Positions 43,753 through 51,137 of a DNA stretch of 64,000 nucleotides are shown piece after piece (positions within the stretch are counted from its first letter, which is position 1; each line of letters starts with the position of its first letter). The stretch covers positions 316,594-380,593 of the forward strand of contig SCUL01000002.1 of NCBI GenBank assembly GCA_004297205.1, written 5' to 3'. The stretch is from Patescibacteria group bacterium (lineage in GTDB: Bacteria > Patescibacteriota > Patescibacteriia > 2-12-FULL-57-11). The notes beneath the pieces were generated by a model that was given only the letters and a program-made list of their open reading frames with translations, did not search any database and was not told the DNA's origin. Position numbers and translations under genes: made by a program.

Positions 43753-45594
43753 TCAGCGGCCGGGCGTGACGGCGCCGGTCACGGGGTTCACGACGCAGGC
43801 GGAGGCCGAAGGCGTACCGTTGCAGCAGTAGGCGTCGCCCGGCCGGCAGCGGCCCACGGCGGGGGTCGCGGCTGCCGGGTAATAACAGTTCTGCCGGGTG
43901 TCCTGCACGGCCGAGCCGATCGACGGCACGTAGTTCGTCTCCTGCAAAAACAGGCAGTGCTGGAGCACGGCGGCGCTCTTGGTGGGCTGGGTGCTGGTGG
44001 CCGAGCCACCGGCGTCGTCGACGTGTTCGCCGTACCAGGCGTAGCAGGTCGGCTCCTCGGGCGGCAACGGCTGTGGGGCCTGCGTCACCGGCATGGCTTC
44101 GCTCGAGAACGTCAGCAGACGCATCAGCTTGGAGAAACGGATGCGGACCGGCGCGTCGAAGGCCACGCGTCCTTCATCGAAGTTCGGGCTGATGGCGTCG
44201 ACCGCCGGCGGCACCAGGTCGATTTCGTCCGTGGTGCGGAAATTCCACGCATGGTCGTCGGCGCCCGGGCCTTCGGCCGTGCCGTTGCCGTTGCCGTCGA
44301 GCGAGTTGCCGGAGACGTCGGTGGCGCCGTCCGACGGATACCGCGTCGGATCGGCCACAGGCGGCGTGTCGGAGAGCGTCGCGGCGCGGATGGTGGCGGC
44401 GATATTGGAGGAGCCCGGCAGGCAATAGACGTTGCCGCCGCAGGAGTTTGTCCCGCACAAGTCGTTGGTCACGAATTCGATCGTCCGGTAGCGATTGCCG
44501 ATGGCGACCGATCCGGGAACGATGGCGCCGCCCGCTTCGATGCGGACGTTGGTGAAGGCCGGCAGGTCGCCGGTGAGCGACGTCGGATCCATCGCCTCGT
44601 TGAACGTCACCTGGACCACGGTGTTGCGCGGATTGGTGGAATCACGGAACGGCACGACGCTTTCGACGACCGGCGGCGTCAGGTCGATGAACGTACCGAC
44701 CGTGAAGTCCCAGAGGTAGCCGCCGGCGAAAATGCCGGCAAAAGCGGCCTCGCCGTCGGCTTTGCGGATGGCAGAGCCGAGCTTCACCTGATAGGCCGTG
44801 TCGGCCGAAGGCGAGCCCAGGAGCGGCGGGATGAACACGAAGGTCTGGCGGTCCGGCGTGAAGGCCACGCGCACGTCGGCGCTCGCGAGCGCCGAGCCTT
44901 CTCCGGCCGAGGCCGCGAAAATCTTGACGTTGGCGTCTTCCAGCGCAGTCGGCGCGCCGCCGCCCGGATAGTCGTCGGACAGGTCGTCCGGCGTGCCCTG
45001 GTCGTCGTAGCCGCGCACGAACGAGGCGATCTGCATCGGCTCCTTGAAGGTCACGATGATGCGGACGTTGCGCGGCACGTCGGTCTGGCCGCGGCCCGGG
45101 TAATGGCTTTCGATGATGCCGTTGCCGAGCGCGCCGGAGAGCGGGATGGATCCGCCGATGCCTCCCCCGCCACCTCCGCCGCCTCCGCCACCGCCGGCTC
45201 CCGTGGCTTCAAGCAGACGGCTCAAAACGAATTGGGTGATGGCGACGGATGACAAAATGATGGCCAGCCCGATCACGGCCTGGGTGATGACACGGCGCGC
45301 CTTGTCGACCTGCTCTTCGTTGCCAGCCGCGGTCATCCACAGGAAACCGCCGTACAAGATGAGGACGACGGCGATGATGCCGAGCAGGCTCAGGAACGTC
45401 CGGATGATGCGGGCCACGGTGATGCGGATGTCGGTGGTGCCCAATCCCAGCGCGCCTTCCACTCCGGGAGTGAGTCCCAAATTCACGGTGGCGGCGTGCG
45501 TCACCTCCGGAACGCACAAAAGGACCGTCCCGGCGATCATCATCGCGAGGAGCAGTCCGGTGGTTGCGGTTGTGCGATCGAAGATGCGATGCAT
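43753..45594 (-). CDS. Surface protein (613 aa) with the same pilin-like N-terminal module and poly-Gly linker, followed by an Ig-like ectodomain.
   Basis: N-terminus aligns with that of the giant protein (GLTP.VEGALGLGTTD.R.TVARIIR.F..LLGI.AV.LILYGGFLWMTAAGNEEQVDKAR.VI..AVIGLAI.LSS.AI.QFV). Its stop is separated by 1 nt from the giant gene's start. Confidence 0.7.
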   Translation of the reverse strand: MHRIFDRTTATTGLLLAMMIAGTVLLCVPEVTHAATVNLGLTPGVEGALGLGTTDIRITVARIIRTFLSLLGIIAVVLILYGGFLWMTAAGNEEQVDKARRVITQAVIGLAIILSSVAITQFVLSRLLEATGAGGGGGGGGGGGGIGGSIPLSGALGNGIIESHYPGRGQTDVPRNVRIIVTFKEPMQIASFVRGYDDQGTPDDLSDDYPGGGAPTALEDANVKIFAASAGEGSALASADVRVAFTPDRQTFVFIPPLLGSPSADTAYQVKLGSAIRKADGEAAFAGIFAGGYLWDFTVGTFIDLTPPVVESVVPFRDSTNPRNTVVQVTFNEAMDPTSLTGDLPAFTNVRIEAGGAIVPGSVAIGNRYRTIEFVTNDLCGTNSCGGNVYCLPGSSNIAATIRAATLSDTPPVADPTRYPSDGATDVSGNSLDGNGNGTAEGPGADDHAWNFRTTDEIDLVPPAVDAISPNFDEGRVAFDAPVRIRFSKLMRLLTFSSEAMPVTQAPQPLPPEEPTCYAWYGEHVDDAGGSATSTQPTKSAAVLQHCLFLQETNYVPSIGSAVQDTRQNCYYPAAATPAVGRCRPGDAYCCNGTPSASACVVNPVTGAVTPGR

Positions 45595-46346: not shown

Positions 46347-47793
46347 CTTCCTTTCTTGAGGATTCTTCGGAAACGCTATCACGCGGGGCCGGGGCGGTCA
46401 ACGGCGCGAGCGGCGCGGTCACCAGTTTCTTGGCGATTTCGCCGGTCACCTTGTTGGCATCCACCATTTCCTGGATGCCGGCCTCCATGTCCCGGATGAT
46501 GATGGTGCCGTCCAAGACCTCCTTCTGGCCGATCAGGAGGGTGTACTTGACCCCCATCCGATTGGCCACTTCCATCTGCGCCTTGAGCGCGTCCTTGGAG
46601 AACGCCACGGCGGCCGGAATGCCCGCCCGGCGCAGATCGTCGAAAATCTTGAAGGCCTTGCGCTTGGCCGGCTCCCCGAGCTGGGCCAGGAAGACGACCG
46701 GTTTGGACTCGTCGAGCGGGATGATCTGGCGCTCCTTCATCTCCAGGATGGTGCGCTCCAGCCCGATGGCAAAACCCGCGCCCGGGGTGGGACGCCCGCC
46801 CAAGAGCTCGATCAGACCGTCATAGCGCCCGCCGGCGGCCGCGGCGCTCTTTGACCCGCCCTCGCGGGCCGGGAAGACCGCCTCAAAGACCGTATGAGAG
46901 TAGTAGTCCAGTCCGCGGACCAGATACGGGTTCAGTTCGAACGGCACTTCCGCGTCCTCCAGATATTCGAGGACCTTCATGAAGTGGTTCTTGCTGTCCT
47001 CGGACAACACGTCGACGATCTGCGGCGCCCCCTGCTTCAGGGGTTCGCAGCCCGGTTCCTTGCAGTCCAGAACGCGCAGCGGGTTCTTGCTCAGGCGCAC
47101 TTTGCAGTTTTCGCACAACACGTTGCGGTGCTGGCGGTAGTAGGCCACGAGCTTCTCGCGGTACTGCTCGCGGTCGGCGGCCGTGCCGATGGAGTTCACT
47201 TCGACCTTCACCTGCAGGCCGAGGTCGAGGAAGAAACGATGGACGCAGATGATGAGCTCGGCGTCGACGACCGGTTTCTGTTCGCCGATCGTTTCGAATC
47301 CGAACTGGTGGAACTGGCGGTAGCGACCGGCCTGCGGCCGCTCGTGGCGGAACATCGGGCCGTGATAGAACAGCTTCACCGGCTGCGGCATGTTGAGCAT
47401 GCCGTGGTTGATGTAGGCGCGGGCGATGGCCGCCGTGGCTTCCGGACGCAGGGCCAACTCGTCGCCGCCCTGGTCGACGAAGGTGAACATCTCCTTCTCC
47501 ACGATGTCGGTCTGCTTGCCGACGCCGCGCACGAAGAGCGCCGTCTCCTCGACGATCGGGGTTTCGATCCATTCAAAGCCGTAGGCCGCGGCCAGCCGTT
47601 CGCCGGCGGTGCGCACGGCGCGCCAGTATTTTGCCTCGGACGGTAAAATGTCTTTCATGCCGCGCGGCGTCTGCGGGGTCGCCACGGTGCGTTTTTTGAC
47701 CGGCGCGGCGGCCGCAGCGGCAGGGGCCGTCGCGGCTTTGACGGCTTTGACGGGCTTCGATGCCGGTTTCTTCATGGGTTTCTTGCCGCTCAT
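46330..47793 (-). CDS. hisS: Histidyl-tRNA synthetase (with a Lys/Ala-rich N-terminal extension, or a later start at MKDILP).
   Basis: RGMKDILP..., class II aaRS motifs, C-terminal anticodon-binding domain. Confidence 0.85.
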   Translation of the reverse strand: MSGKKPMKKPASKPVKAVKAATAPAAAAAAPVKKRTVATPQTPRGMKDILPSEAKYWRAVRTAGERLAAAYGFEWIETPIVEETALFVRGVGKQTDIVEKEMFTFVDQGGDELALRPEATAAIARAYINHGMLNMPQPVKLFYHGPMFRHERPQAGRYRQFHQFGFETIGEQKPVVDAELIICVHRFFLDLGLQVKVEVNSIGTAADREQYREKLVAYYRQHRNVLCENCKVRLSKNPLRVLDCKEPGCEPLKQGAPQIVDVLSEDSKNHFMKVLEYLEDAEVPFELNPYLVRGLDYYSHTVFEAVFPAREGGSKSAAAAGGRYDGLIELLGGRPTPGAGFAIGLERTILEMKERQIIPLDESKPVVFLAQLGEPAKRKAFKIFDDLRRAGIPAAVAFSKDALKAQMEVANRMGVKYTLLIGQKEVLDGTIIIRDMEAGIQEMVDANKVTGEIAKKLVTAPLAPLTAPAPRDSVSEESSRKEGDSSG

Positions 47794-47801
47794 AGCGGGA
47801 A

Positions 47802-48395
47802 CTATTCGGAGTAAGACGGCGTCTCAAAACTGGTGATCTTGTCGATGGGGAGCCCGCGCAGCCAGACACGGCCGGTGATCTGGTTCTTGTGTACCGGACC
47901 GAAGCTGCGCGAGTCGAGCGAGGACGGACGGTTGTCGCCCATCACGAAATATTCTTCGGCGCCGAGCGTGACGCGCTTGTCGCCCGGGGTGGGCACGGTG
48001 CCGAGGTAGGCGTACTCATCCAGGAGCTGCGGTTCGCTGTCACCGGCCATCTGCACGAACACCTGCCCGCCTTTGACGACGACCGTCTCCCCCGGCAGGC
48101 CGATGACGCGCTTGATGAAGAACTGCCGCGGGTCGTTGGGGTAGCGGAAAACGACGATCTCGCCGCGCTCCGGTTCCCGCAGGCGGTAGGAGAGCTCGTC
48201 GATGATCAGGTACTCGTGGTCGTAGAAGTTCGGCTCCATCGAGGCCCCGCGCACCGAGAACGGCTGGATCAAGAAGTAGCGAACCAAAAAGACGATCGCC
48301 CCGGCAATGATGACCACGCGGGCGATCTCAGCGACGTACCCGAAGAAAACGGCCGCTCCGGTCTTCGCGACCGGAAGCTGCGGAGTGTCGGACAT
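47802..48395 (-). CDS. lepB: Signal peptidase I.
   Basis: GASMEPNF (Ser box), KRVIGLPGE (Lys box), GDNRPSSLDSR. Confidence 0.85.
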   Translation of the reverse strand: MSDTPQLPVAKTGAAVFFGYVAEIARVVIIAGAIVFLVRYFLIQPFSVRGASMEPNFYDHEYLIIDELSYRLREPERGEIVVFRYPNDPRQFFIKRVIGLPGETVVVKGGQVFVQMAGDSEPQLLDEYAYLGTVPTPGDKRVTLGAEEYFVMGDNRPSSLDSRSFGPVHKNQITGRVWLRGLPIDKITSFETPSYSE

Positions 48396-48426
48396 GGGCC
48401 TATATTGCTCTAAAAAATGAGCTTTG

Positions 48427-49426
48427 TCAAACGCCCCTCTCGATCACCTTTTTCGAGAGATTCCAGGCATTGGCGTGCTGGAGCATCCCCAGATACGACT
48501 CCGTCCGGGCATAACTACCCGGATCCACAGTCCGCAGTTTCTTGAACATCCTCCGCCGTGTTTTTGTTCGCAAGACACGGTGATGCGGCAACGTGACATA
48601 CCCGAGAAAGTCGATGCCTTGCCCAAGCTTCCGCAGGATGACTTTTCGCGGATGGAGTTCCAATCGGAGCTGATTCCGAAGAAAAGCGCGCATCGGCGGC
48701 AGAAGTGAAACAAGCTCCACCGGATCGTCATGCAGCAGGATGAAATCGTCGGTGTAGCGGAGATAGCGCTTCACGCCCAGCCGTTCTTTCACGAAATGGT
48801 CGAAGGAATCGAGATAGACGTTCGCAAAAAGTTGCGATGTGAGATTGCCGATCGGGACGCCAATTAGCTCTCTCTCTCTCTCCGTTATTATCAACAGGAG
48901 GATAGCTTTCGATGGTCCGACGCAGGAGCTCCAACGTTTGCGGATCGCTGACCCGACGACCGAGCAGTCGGAGCAGCACGTCGTGGGAGATGCTGTCGAA
49001 ATACTTGCGAATGTCGCACTTGAGCGCCCAGCACGGACCGGTGAAGTTGCCGCTCACGCTGCGGGCGAACGTCTCGATCCTCCGAACGGCGGCGTGCGTC
49101 CCCTTTCCGATCCGGCAAGAGTAGGAATCGAAGATGAACGACTGTTCGCACAGAGGCGCAACGACGCGGGAAACGGCATGGTGGACGACGCGGTCGCGGA
49201 CCGTCGCCTTATGGATAATGCGATGTTTTGGGTCGAAGATGTGGAACTTCTTGTACGGACCGTGACGATATCGGGCGGACGCAAGATCTTCGGCGAGTGC
49301 AAAAAGATTGTCCTCAAGATGACGTTCGAACCGCTGCACGTCCGGCTTGGCGCGCTTGCCGCGCCGAAACTCGCGCCAGGCGCAAAAAAGATTTTCCGGA
49401 GAAACGATCTGTTCGAATATGCTCAT
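48427..49426 (-). pseudogene. DGR reverse transcriptase, split into two overlapping frames (49426-48728 and 48894-48427) by a frameshift at a (GA)7.5 tract.
   Basis: RT motifs 1-3 in the upstream frame. IGVPIGNLTSQLFANVYLD (the DGR-type IGxxxSQ motif), YLRYTDDFILL (YxDD) and a FLGY thumb in the downstream frame. The frames are offset by 1 nt across ctctctctctctctc (48868-48882). Confidence 0.75.
48868..48882. repeat. Dinucleotide repeat (CT)7.5 (minus-strand (GA)n, coding ERERE), at the RT frameshift.
   Basis: Read directly. Adding one GA unit would restore a single RT reading frame. Confidence 0.7.
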
Positions 49427-49760
49427 ACATGAATCCTCCGTCTTCCAGGCGACTTACGACGTGCTCAAGGACCTGCACGTCGCGCGGCGGTCGTTCGCCA
49501 AGTCGGAAAAGTACGCGCTGGGTGAACGAATGGAGGAGACGCTGCTGAACGTTCTGCTCGGCATCATCGACGCGGGACAGGCCAAACAGGAGTGGAAACT
49601 GACGGGCATCGACGCAGCGCTTCGGGAGTTGGAAAAAACGAAGATACTCCTTCGCCTGGCCAGCGACCTCGGACAGATCCAGGAACGACGGCTGATTTCG
49701 TATCAAGAATCGCTCCAGAAAATCGGACGGATGCTCGGCGGCTGGCGCAGGGCGATATAG
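49419..49760 (+). CDS. avd: Avd-like accessory variability determinant (four-helix-bundle, 23S rRNA IVS protein family).
   Basis: 113 aa. FAKSEKYALGERMEETLLNVLLGIIDAG ... IGRMLGGWRRAI resembles Bordetella-phage bAvd (..VGRILGSWIARV). Transcribed divergently from the RT, with overlapping start codons. Confidence 0.6.
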   Translation: MLIHESSVFQATYDVLKDLHVARRSFAKSEKYALGERMEETLLNVLLGIIDAGQAKQEWKLTGIDAALRELEKTKILLRLASDLGQIQERRLISYQESLQKIGRMLGGWRRAI

Positions 49761-49798
49761 CAACGCTCCGATTGCGCGGAGCATTGCAGGCGAGACAG

Positions 49799-49920
49799 TC
49801 CCGCGGAACCGGACCCGTAGTTGTCGTTCGGCTTGTCGTCCCAGTTCCAGTTGAGCTTCGGCCTCCTGTTCCAGTTGCCGAGGTTGGTCACGTTCCGGGC
49901 GTCGTCGGCGTGGACGGAGC
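49799..49920 (-). repeat. DGR template repeat (TR), 122 bp.
   Basis: Matches 50239-50360 at 101 of 122 positions. All 21 mismatches are T on the plus strand (A on the minus strand) in this copy versus C/A/G in the other. In the VR frame it encodes many AAC (Asn) codons. Confidence 0.85.
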
Positions 49921-50138
49921 GAAATATTGCCGGACCCCATCCGATGCACTGCGCCTTCCGTTCATGCGGTCGGCGCTGTATTTCATGCCGGGGCATGTCC
50001 CCGTCAGGATCCGGCAAGGAGTGTCTCGTTGGAATCGCACGCTTCCGCCGCGATGCGACGGAACTCTGGCGATGACTCTTTCGAGGATTTCGGGGACGGC
50101 AAGAAATACTCCGACCGTACATGACCCTACTCTCCACG

Positions 50139-50178
50139 GTAGTATAAAAAACGCGCCGGAATGTTTCCATTCCGGCGC
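50139..50178 (-). terminator. Hairpin (11-bp perfect stem gcgccggaatg / cattccggcgc) plus T-run, downstream of the DGR target stop and between the VR and TR.
   Basis: Read directly. On the minus strand it is followed by gttttttatac. Confidence 0.6.
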
Positions 50179-50211
50179 CGGCCGAAGCCGAGGGCTGATC
50201 GCCGAGAAGCG

Positions 50212-50982
50212 TCAAGACCCGAGGGTCGAGCGCTCCACTCCCGCGGAACCGGACCCGCAGTAGTCGTACGGCTTGCCGACCCAGCGCCAGAGGAGCTCCG
50301 GCCCCCCGTGCCAGACGCCGAGGCCGGCCACGCTCCGGGCGCCGCCGGCGTGGACGGAGCCGACCAGGTCAACGTAGTGACCGCTGATGACCTTCGGGAC
50401 GTGGACGTAGAGGGCGACGCCCTCGATCGCGGTCAGCCCACGCTCGTCCTCGGGGAAGGCATCGCGGCAGGCAAACGGCGCCTTGCCGCGGTTGCGGCGA
50501 CCATCCTGGCAGTTCAGCCAGTAGACCGCCGGACGCGTCGGGATCGACTCGTGATCCACAAAGGTCGCGTCCGAGCCATCGAACTTCAGCCCCGCGAGCG
50601 CGCAGCACTTCGTGAGCGGCAGGCGCTGGTCGACCAGGATCACCCGGTCGAAGCGCTCCTTCCAGGCCTCGGGCCAGACCGGGAGCTCCGGGATGGTCGC
50701 GAGGTAGGCCTCGAACGAGTCGATGCCAAGCTCACGTCCCCAGCCCTTGTCCCAGAACGCCTTGGCCCGCGTCGCACGCAGGTCGGTGGGGTCGATCACG
50801 ACCTCCGACACATCCGGCGCGGGCGCATCGCGGTAGGGGCCGCCGCCCGAGGGCAGCCGCATCCGGACCACGCTCGGGTCCTTGAGGAACGCGGCGAGAT
50901 CCTTGGCGAACTGCTTGGGATCATCGCCCCGCTGAAGCCGGACCGTGACTTCCTCGATCAGAGACACCTGCTTGCTGCTCAT
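50212..50982 (-). CDS. DGR target (variable) protein, about 256 aa, with a C-terminal CLec/FGE-like variable region. No signal peptide.
   Basis: Start MSSKQV, preceded by GGAGGG. C-terminus ...GSVHAGGARSVAGLGVWHGGPELLWRWVGKPYDYCGSGSAG is encoded by the VR. Confidence 0.75.
   Translation of the reverse strand: MSSKQVSLIEEVTVRLQRGDDPKQFAKDLAAFLKDPSVVRMRLPSGGGPYRDAPAPDVSEVVIDPTDLRATRAKAFWDKGWGRELGIDSFEAYLATIPELPVWPEAWKERFDRVILVDQRLPLTKCCALAGLKFDGSDATFVDHESIPTRPAVYWLNCQDGRRNRGKAPFACRDAFPEDERGLTAIEGVALYVHVPKVISGHYVDLVGSVHAGGARSVAGLGVWHGGPELLWRWVGKPYDYCGSGSAGVERSTLGS
50239..50360 (-). repeat. DGR variable repeat (VR) at the 3' end of the target gene.
   Basis: The counterpart of the TR. Ends 27 nt before the target stop codon. 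Changes are N->S/G/V/H/L/R/Y, D->G/V, T->A, R->G, K->E, Y->C relative to the TR translation. Confidence 0.85.
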
Positions 50983-51137
50983 GACACCCTCCGAATGGAT
51001 CAGGCATCGGACAGTCCCGATTGGACCGTACCGAAAGCTGTTTTTCCCGTTCAAAGGCCATTCCCGTCACCGGACGGGCACGCTGCGTTCGGTCCATACC
51101 AAACGACCCGGCATACTAGCCGGATTCCCAAGAAAGG

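Follow-up and report, generated by a model that had tools for sequence, protein, structure and literature searches.

A simple sequence repeat in the reverse transcriptase gene of a patescibacterial diversity-generating retroelement as a likely reversible switch of mutagenesis

Diversity-generating retroelements (DGRs) and simple sequence repeat (SSR) contingency loci are each already known, and it is their combination that appears to be new in the locus described here. The closest described DGRs are the bRT-Avd system of Bordetella phage BPP-1 and the DGRs of the Candidate Phyla Radiation (CPR), in which the accessory gene avd usually stands divergent from the reverse transcriptase (RT) gene, a layout termed architecture B3 (Wu et al. 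2018, PMC5758913). SSR contingency loci have been described in Haemophilus, Neisseria, Campylobacter and Helicobacter, for example in the phase-variable Mod methyltransferases or "phasevarions" (PMC5909438, PMC7383803, PMC11868660). The question at stake for DGRs is how they are restrained; adenine mutagenesis that ran freely would destroy variants that are already functional. We analyzed a DGR in 64,000 nucleotides from a Patescibacteria group bacterium (assembly GCA_004297205.1, contig SCUL01000002.1, positions 316,594 to 380,593 of the forward strand; hereafter, the window), in which a perfect (GA)7.5 tract splits the RT gene between two reading frames at 48868..48882 on the minus strand. 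We put the probability at roughly 70% that this tract is an SSR-driven, reversible switch gating DGR mutagenesis and that the window was sequenced in its OFF phase, a reading which, judged from comparative sequence analysis, appears well supported across the RT family and likely for the window allele.

In most respects the locus resembles the described DGRs. Like those of the CPR and BPP-1, it has an RT with the motif 4 signature [LIV]GxxxSQ and a YxDD box, an Avd protein, adenine-only mismatches between its template repeat (TR) and variable repeat (VR), and a VR at the 3' end of a target open reading frame (ORF), and its layout fits architecture B3. It differs in that its RT, unlike the solved DGR RT 8ub7, has a lineage-specific loop encoded by pure (GA)n (poly-G in a sister group), and in that this repeat leaves the catalytic half of the gene out of frame in the window and in ∼80% of the sampled relatives. 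With SSR contingency loci it shares a perfect repeat within the coding sequence, a repeat unit that is not a multiple of three, a downstream ORF that is kept intact, and the occurrence of ON and OFF alleles in otherwise identical strains (here in sister lineages). As in phasevarions, the switched gene encodes an enzyme with pleiotropic downstream effects and not a structural surface protein. However, the hosts of the known contingency loci are host-adapted pathogens, whereas those of this family are uncultivated, environmental, ultra-small CPR bacteria, and the function that would be switched here is a targeted hypermutation engine, a second-order control of the evolvability of another locus.

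The tract reads CTCTCTCTCTCTCTC on the plus strand at 48868-48882 and (GA)7.5 on the coding minus strand. It marks the frame-switch point between an N-terminal RT ORF of 232 aa (48728..49426, minus strand), which matches positions 8-117 of the RVT_1 profile (E 1.5e-7), and a C-terminal RT ORF of 155 aa in the +1 frame (48427..48894, minus strand), which matches positions 118-203 of the same profile (E 3.8e-7); both halves score above the Pfam RVT_1 gathering threshold. Residues 1 to ∼181 (49426..48883) are genuine RT with motifs 1-3, and beyond the tract the N-terminal ORF runs out of frame until its stop at 48728. In the C-terminal half, genuine coding extends from the tract edge at 48867 to the stop at 48427 and includes motif 4 (PIGNLTSQ), the catalytic YTDD and the thumb. 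In an alignment to 32 intact homologues, frame A contributes "SYPPVDNN" and frame B contributes LIGVPIGNLTSQ, each in register with the intact proteins (e.g., SFPNVDNFLKREREREIIGIPIGNL in P0009), and because both flanks align in this way, the frame change must lie inside the tract. A first-pass annotation, made by a model from the letters of the window, had placed the two halves one nucleotide out of frame across this repeat and had proposed that one extra GA unit would join them; the ORFs, the profile matches and the homologue alignment agree with the former, and fusion of the halves does give a continuous RT ORF. Its estimate of ∼390 aa for the fused protein was too long: the product would be 333 aa (or 332 or 331 aa, depending on the indel), within the 320-370 aa of its homologues.

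Continuity of the RT ORF is restored by the gain of one GA unit or by the loss of 1 nt or 4 nt. A tract length of 17 nt or of 11 nt would put the RT in frame; at 15 nt, the window allele is OFF and one GA unit below ON. The offset at the tract is the single lesion of the gene, and the fused RT keeps 62 of 62 alignment-invariant residues, which is not what a decayed pseudogene looks like. Tandem Repeats Finder also lists no other period-2 array anywhere in the 64 kb, and no such tract was found in 100 dinucleotide-preserving shuffles, i.e., the chance expectation is 0. The product of the N-terminal ORF is identical to a 232-aa protein already in NCBI as "Retron-type reverse transcriptase" (TAK04955.1, our P0008), where it is encoded on an 855,898-bp Patescibacteria contig. 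The cluster of this protein has one member, no second sequence of the window's RT allele was found in the collections searched, and the closest RT found has 65% amino acid identity, the nearest lineage being that of loci L001 and L208.

The tract is a feature of the RT family and not of the window alone. ERERE(R) recurs in many top-ranking homologues (55-65% identity), in the very alignment columns that the window tract occupies. In genome contigs (L001, L011, L013, L035, L037, L052), from genomes whose GC content is 31-56%, its coding sequence is a pure GA run of 10-21 nt and not a mixture of Glu and Arg codons. We scanned metagenome contigs, blind to frame, for (GA)6 followed after a gap of 3-33 nt by degenerate codons for P-x-G-N-x-T-S-Q. 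This returned at least 120 loci, and the counts of phase, half-integrity and selection below come from these loci, 101 of which were assessable among the matches listed. A scan of genome contigs, from which the best 80 loci were taken, is biased toward intact genes and was not used for ON/OFF ratios. The same pattern had no match in the viral contigs of IMG/VR, and the RT clade is thus not represented among them. In the 120 listed loci the GA tract ranges from 12 to 43 nt. A comparison of orthologous tract lengths, which the first-pass annotation had recommended, reveals differences even between near-identical strains. Across the 616 kb of these loci, the other long SSRs amount to two dinucleotide tracts of ≥12 nt and two long homopolymers, all four of which are in or beside RT loops; the genomes are otherwise SSR-free over this 616 kb, and the repeat is specific to the RT loop. 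On a tree of the N-terminal halves, the GA trait clusters, with 19 changes as compared to 58 in shuffles, a figure that, with trait-biased sampling, says little on the number of origins.

Tract length was directly observed to vary at the DNA level between near-identical strains. In three sibling JGI metagenomes (3300013138, 3300013136, and 3300013126), loci L205, L206, and L207 have tracts of 23, 21, and 31 nt and are ON, OFF, and OFF, respectively, with 0-5 flank mismatches in 2.2 kb. Similarly, L001 (20 nt, ON) and L208 (16 nt, OFF) differ by 1 flank mismatch in 2.1 kb, and L209 (19 nt) and L210 (23 nt), which are OFF in different phases, by 3 in 1.7 kb. Protein clusters at 90% identity repeat this picture, in that alleles sharing an identical N-terminal half are full length in some cases and truncated, in either OFF phase, in others: P0009 and P0273 are ON, with P0271 and P0272 in one OFF phase and P0274 in the other; in a further cluster P0002 and P0276 are ON and P0275 is OFF; and in another P0281 is ON and P0129 and P0280 are OFF. 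P0001 and P0277 are both in frame and are one Glu-Arg apart. Among more distant relatives that still share both flanks, tracts differ by 2-nt steps, as in L109 (17 nt, OFF) and L131 (19 nt, ON), L095 (14 nt) and L162 (16 nt), L182 (17 nt), L083 (25 nt) and L082 (31 nt), and L035 (21 nt), L181 (23 nt) and L097 (at least 41 nt). Three contigs start inside a tract or no more than 2 nt from one, which is expected if assemblers meet length heterogeneity at that point. An apparent polymorphism of 29 versus 21 nt between L123 and L157 was discarded because the L157 contig starts inside the tract.

To call the phase of each locus, the reading frame of its N-terminal half was located by tblastn with window residues 1-176 and set against the frame of PIGNLTSQ. 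Among the 101 assessable loci, 18 are in frame, 41 are at +1, and 42 are at +2. Artefacts of assembler k-mers were ruled out as the cause, because the out-of-frame majority persists in short tracts of 12-20 nt (12 of 58 in frame). In ∼94 of the 101 loci, the N-terminal half (query 2-175) is one uninterrupted match and the C-terminal half stays open for 130-160 codons, and in 81 of the 83 out-of-frame loci a single indel within the tract joins the frames; extra lesions occur in a few (L130, L160, L166, L171, L173, L174, and L192). Between pairs of OFF alleles, the ratio of nonsynonymous to synonymous substitution rates (dN/dS) over the first 120 codons of the C-terminal half is ∼0.06-0.18, and the downstream half is thus under purifying selection even though it is out of frame. 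Where the flanking sequence is long enough, about 45 loci, many of them in an OFF phase, show TR/VR pairs whose 9-26 mismatches are specific to adenine. Phase carries no phylogenetic signal. On a neighbor-joining tree of the N-terminal halves, parsimony requires 33 changes of phase (36.8±2.5 after shuffling), and sister pairs agree in phase no more often than chance predicts, in 9 of 24. The family thus has the sequence-level hallmarks of a contingency locus, namely an SSR within a coding sequence whose unit is not divisible by three, ON and OFF alleles of which the latter are otherwise free of lesions, and, in sister lineages of the window, polymorphic tract lengths in near-identical strains. 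Of the three explanations that the first-pass annotation had left side by side, the slipped-strand on/off switch accordingly gains strong comparative support from the conserved position of the tract, the near-identical strains with ON and OFF alleles, and the intactness of both halves and the purifying selection on them.

The position of the tract within the protein was examined with P0002, the closest intact homologue, which matches the solved DGR RT 8ub7 with an E of 6e-51. In this alignment GGKFAERERERAH is a 13-residue insertion relative to 8ub7, directly before "GIPIGSLTSQ". The AlphaFold model of P0002 has a mean predicted local distance difference test score (pLDDT) of 92.7, and its sole weak segment is the loop (residues 171-190), with pLDDT below 50 at 179-181. 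We therefore read the tract as lying in a dispensable surface loop just upstream of motif 4. In a sister RT group, "V-GGG(G)-S" occupies the position of the GA loop and is encoded by a homopolymer. It is in frame with G9 (P0017; L201/L202, at ∼3530-3545 of L201) and with G12 (L002, ∼2050-2065), and out of frame with G9 (L203, 967-975, +1) and G11 (L204, 3046-3056, +2), where the C-terminal half is intact to its natural stop; truncated representatives also exist among the proteins (P0121 and P0130). In L102 (at ∼274) a GA tract is directly followed by G11. That two repeat types occur in one loop, each with ON and OFF alleles, suggests that mutability itself has been selected.

The most likely mechanism is the following. 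Slipped-strand mispairing during replication would add or remove GA units, and each unit would move the downstream frame by 2 nt, so that the three phases would be visited cyclically. One tract length in three would yield a full-length RT with a (Glu-Arg)n loop (ON). The other two phases would yield an N-terminal fragment that ends at a stop 0-100 nt past the tract and that lacks motifs 4-7 and the active site (OFF). Without RT there would be neither cDNA nor retrohoming, and the VR would be frozen until the tract slipped back; since slippage is possible both ways, an OFF allele would be able to revert. The mechanism further supposes that switching is frequent within clonal populations and reversible within a clone, that OFF alleles lack RT activity, and that selection maintains the switch as bet-hedging between diversifying and keeping a working variant. 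As a broader claim, that a selected, reversible SSR switch in the RT loop runs through a large DGR clade of the CPR/Patescibacteria, with (GA)n in one group and poly-G in its sister, and makes hypermutation itself phase-variable, we would give even odds. Under such a switch, most cells would hold RT OFF and keep their current receptor variant, and a stochastic minority with RT ON would diversify.

Several points weigh against this reading. The rate of switching, its reversal within clones and the inactivity of OFF alleles are inferences and not measurements, and the length polymorphism was seen in sister lineages and not in the window's species, the nearest RT found having 65% amino acid identity to that of the window. 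At 7.5 units the window tract is at the short end of the family range and may switch more slowly than most. In addition, in-frame alleles (18 of 101) fall below the one-third expected from neutral cycling (binomial p ∼7e-4, taking loci as independent). A pure ON/OFF model therefore needs added selection against ON, and the deficit points to an ON state that carries a cost and does not usually last; the same deficit is, however, also expected if OFF alleles make RT through slippage at the level of RNA or the ribosome.

The sequence around the tract is relevant to this last possibility. Directly 3' of the tract (L081-L200), TAA is found in 38 of the 120 listed loci (as TAAA in 29 of these) and CGCG in another 11; depending on phase, the TAA is read as part of ...E-S-K..., as part of ...R-V-N..., or as a stop at the tract end. 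Strong short hairpins flank the tract on one or both sides in some lineages (L035, L097, and L181; also L118, L189, and L130), for example CGATTTTCG...CGAAAATCG upstream and GCAGCC-TTCG-GCTGC 1 nt downstream. Over the 50 nt past the tract the mean folding z is -0.81 as compared to -0.16 in a control segment, a difference that arises in part from the conserved P-x-G codons, and clear hairpins 1-8 nt downstream of the tract are confined to some lineages. The tract codons are GAG-AGA in a neighborhood of ∼64% GC, and at such a GC content AGA is expected to be a rare, and probably slow, Arg codon.

Recoding would yield full-length RT from any phase through ±2-nt ribosomal slippage or RNA polymerase stuttering, with the tract acting as a throttle that holds RT levels down and not as an on/off switch. 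A tRNA in the P site could re-pair perfectly two bases away on the GA repeat with a probably slow AGA codon at hand, the TAA would in some phases bring a stop codon into the A site just as the slippery run ends, the downstream 50 nt are somewhat more structured and in some lineages form hairpins, and the shortage of in-frame alleles looks as if high RT expression were selected against while out-of-frame alleles still gave product. Recoding is established in dnaX, prfB, the IS3-family transposases and the poly-A rescue of endosymbionts, and the known sites have a fixed offset, a conserved slippery heptamer and a conserved stimulator. The RT family resembles these genes in having two overlapping ORFs at a slippery repeat, sometimes with a stop or hairpin just downstream. 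Unlike them, it has an offset that is random across relatives (+1 occurs as often as +2, 18% of loci are in frame, and phylogenetic signal is absent), and the conservation expected of a recoding cassette is seen neither in the length of the tract, at 12-43 nt, nor in its flanks or the sequence downstream. Moreover, the poly-G of the sister class is a classical DNA-slippage motif, and length polymorphism is seen in the DNA itself. We thus regard recoding as an improbable substitute for DNA-level switching, with the proviso that the two are not mutually exclusive and may coexist. A split RT, with the purine-rich tract serving as a Shine-Dalgarno sequence for re-initiation of the C-terminal half, was rejected because no consistent start codon follows the tract and because in many loci the C-terminal frame opens only at the tract itself.

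Two further explanations concern whether the OFF alleles are real and whether they are alive. A sequencing or assembly error in the window (a consensus indel, e.g., from long reads, in a tract that is truly 17 or 11 nt long, the RT being intact) would fit a sole lesion that amounts to a 1-nt offset within a repeat, on a single source contig for which the searched collections hold no second copy of the allele. As a doubt about that one allele it keeps some force, and we consider it unlikely. As an account of the frame break it is unnecessary because OFF is the common state elsewhere: 83 of the 101 listed homologous tracts are out of frame in independent assemblies (JGI and ENA), tracts of 12-20 nt included, and ON and OFF alleles of one strain have been recovered from separate samples. 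The neighboring ORFs for histidyl-tRNA synthetase, signal peptidase, an LCP-family protein and a Der-like protein are also long and unbroken, although this is a weak argument against a generally noisy assembly. Non-adaptive decay would instead make the tract a mutational accident in a tolerant loop, the frameshifted alleles dead DGRs, and the mix of ON and OFF a source-sink artefact. A dispensable loop would indeed let a repeat expand neutrally, most alleles are OFF, and the few loci with extra lesions listed above could be read in this way. But a second lesion within ∼1 kb is absent from more than 90% of OFF alleles, the dN/dS of the downstream half between OFF alleles is ∼0.1, and SSRs that are absent elsewhere in the 616 kb recur in the RT loop as two repeat types. 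A tract that mutates readily enough to leave ∼80% of lineages out of frame must also return to frame much more quickly than point mutations build up. In the window itself, where the first-pass annotation had considered a recently decayed DGR, every invariant RT residue is kept and avd, TR, VR and target ORF are intact. Decay is therefore disfavored, and we rate it the least likely of these accounts.

If the switch operates as proposed, it would provide a heritable and reversible restraint on DGRs, with mutagenesis active in only a fraction of a lineage at any time, and would act as a second-order bet-hedging device that controls evolvability. Uncultivated, environmental, ultra-small bacteria would thereby gain their first large family of contingency loci, and SSR phase variation, so far described chiefly in host-adapted pathogens, would reach environmental CPR bacteria and an enzyme that governs the mutation of another gene. 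Because ∼80% of the sampled alleles are out of frame, DGR surveys that demand an intact RT ORF miss or mis-score most members of this clade, and "inactive DGR" calls in CPR genomes may often represent OFF-phase alleles. The gating hypothesis can be tested on existing metagenome reads by comparing tract-length spectra to VR diversity. Searches of full texts gave no paper on a DGR RT that has a repeat tract, switches by frameshift or varies in phase; an earlier mention in Paul et al. 2017, the main survey of CPR DGRs, is possible. Of the large DGR surveys, neither Wu et al. 2018 (PMC5758913) nor that of Roux et al. (2021) mentions a repeat tract in the RT.

The remainder of the cassette supports its assignment as a DGR, as the first-pass annotation had proposed, through the bAvd gene, the adenine-specific TR/VR mismatches and the DGR-type motif 4 of the RT. 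The avd gene (49422..49760, plus strand) encodes a four-helix-bundle protein of 112 aa (Pfam bAvd, E 7.1e-14). The TR (49796..49920, minus strand) and the VR (50236..50360, minus strand) form a 125-nt direct repeat with 82% identity, and on the minus strand 21 of their 22 mismatches have A in the TR against any base in the VR, the remaining one being at the repeat edge; because the mismatches fall on the adenines of the copy at 49796-49920, this copy was identified as the TR. The VR occupies the last ∼50 codons, i.e., the C terminus, of an intact target ORF of 280 aa (50212..51054, minus strand), for which Pfam gave no significant family and a sole sub-threshold match to DUF5701 (E 0.025). Nothing in the cassette looks decayed apart from the tract. 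The locus is a DGR with its RT currently out of phase: the assembled sequence has no continuous translatable RT ORF, which is split at 48868-48882 with a +1 offset, and every other DGR feature tested is present.

The avd gene is divergent from the RT gene, and their start codons overlap head-to-head by 5 nt (49422-49426). This divergent layout recurs in the homologous loci fetched, where the two start codons are 0-5 nt apart (L201, 3000/3001; L204, 2495/2501; L205, 779/780). Because avd and RT have almost no intergenic space, each promoter must sit inside the coding sequence of the other gene. Antisense avd also stands between the TR and the RT. The RT/avd part of the window (48200-49800) has a GC content of 0.54-0.59, as compared to 0.63-0.70 in the flanking housekeeping genes and the target (46400-48200 and 50000-51000).

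A few other RTs in the collection are interrupted near the same loop. The RT of Parcubacteria GW2011_GWA2_40_23 (L050, at ∼2950) has an in-frame TAG ("AMDLI*KIVYSF") a few codons before the loop and is nonetheless among the best full-length matches. Six more distant RTs, not CPR-like (P0200, P0203, P0204, P0225, P0259, and P0266), are truncated, with the protein sequence going out of frame just before motif 4; they are of the type "...SNPQE...YFPGDDLF...RGLPIGNLTSQ", and this pattern may be a sampling artefact in which truncated forms seed their own 50% clusters. Elsewhere in the window, at 43753-45594 on the minus strand, a 613-aa protein combines a T4SS-pilin-like N-terminal segment (Pfam T4SS_pilin, E 1.7e-6) with a Big_5 Ig-like domain. 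It contains a run of ∼13 glycines encoded by an imperfect CCGCCA/CCGCCACCT repeat (45161-45196), which is a low-complexity sequence and not a perfect SSR.

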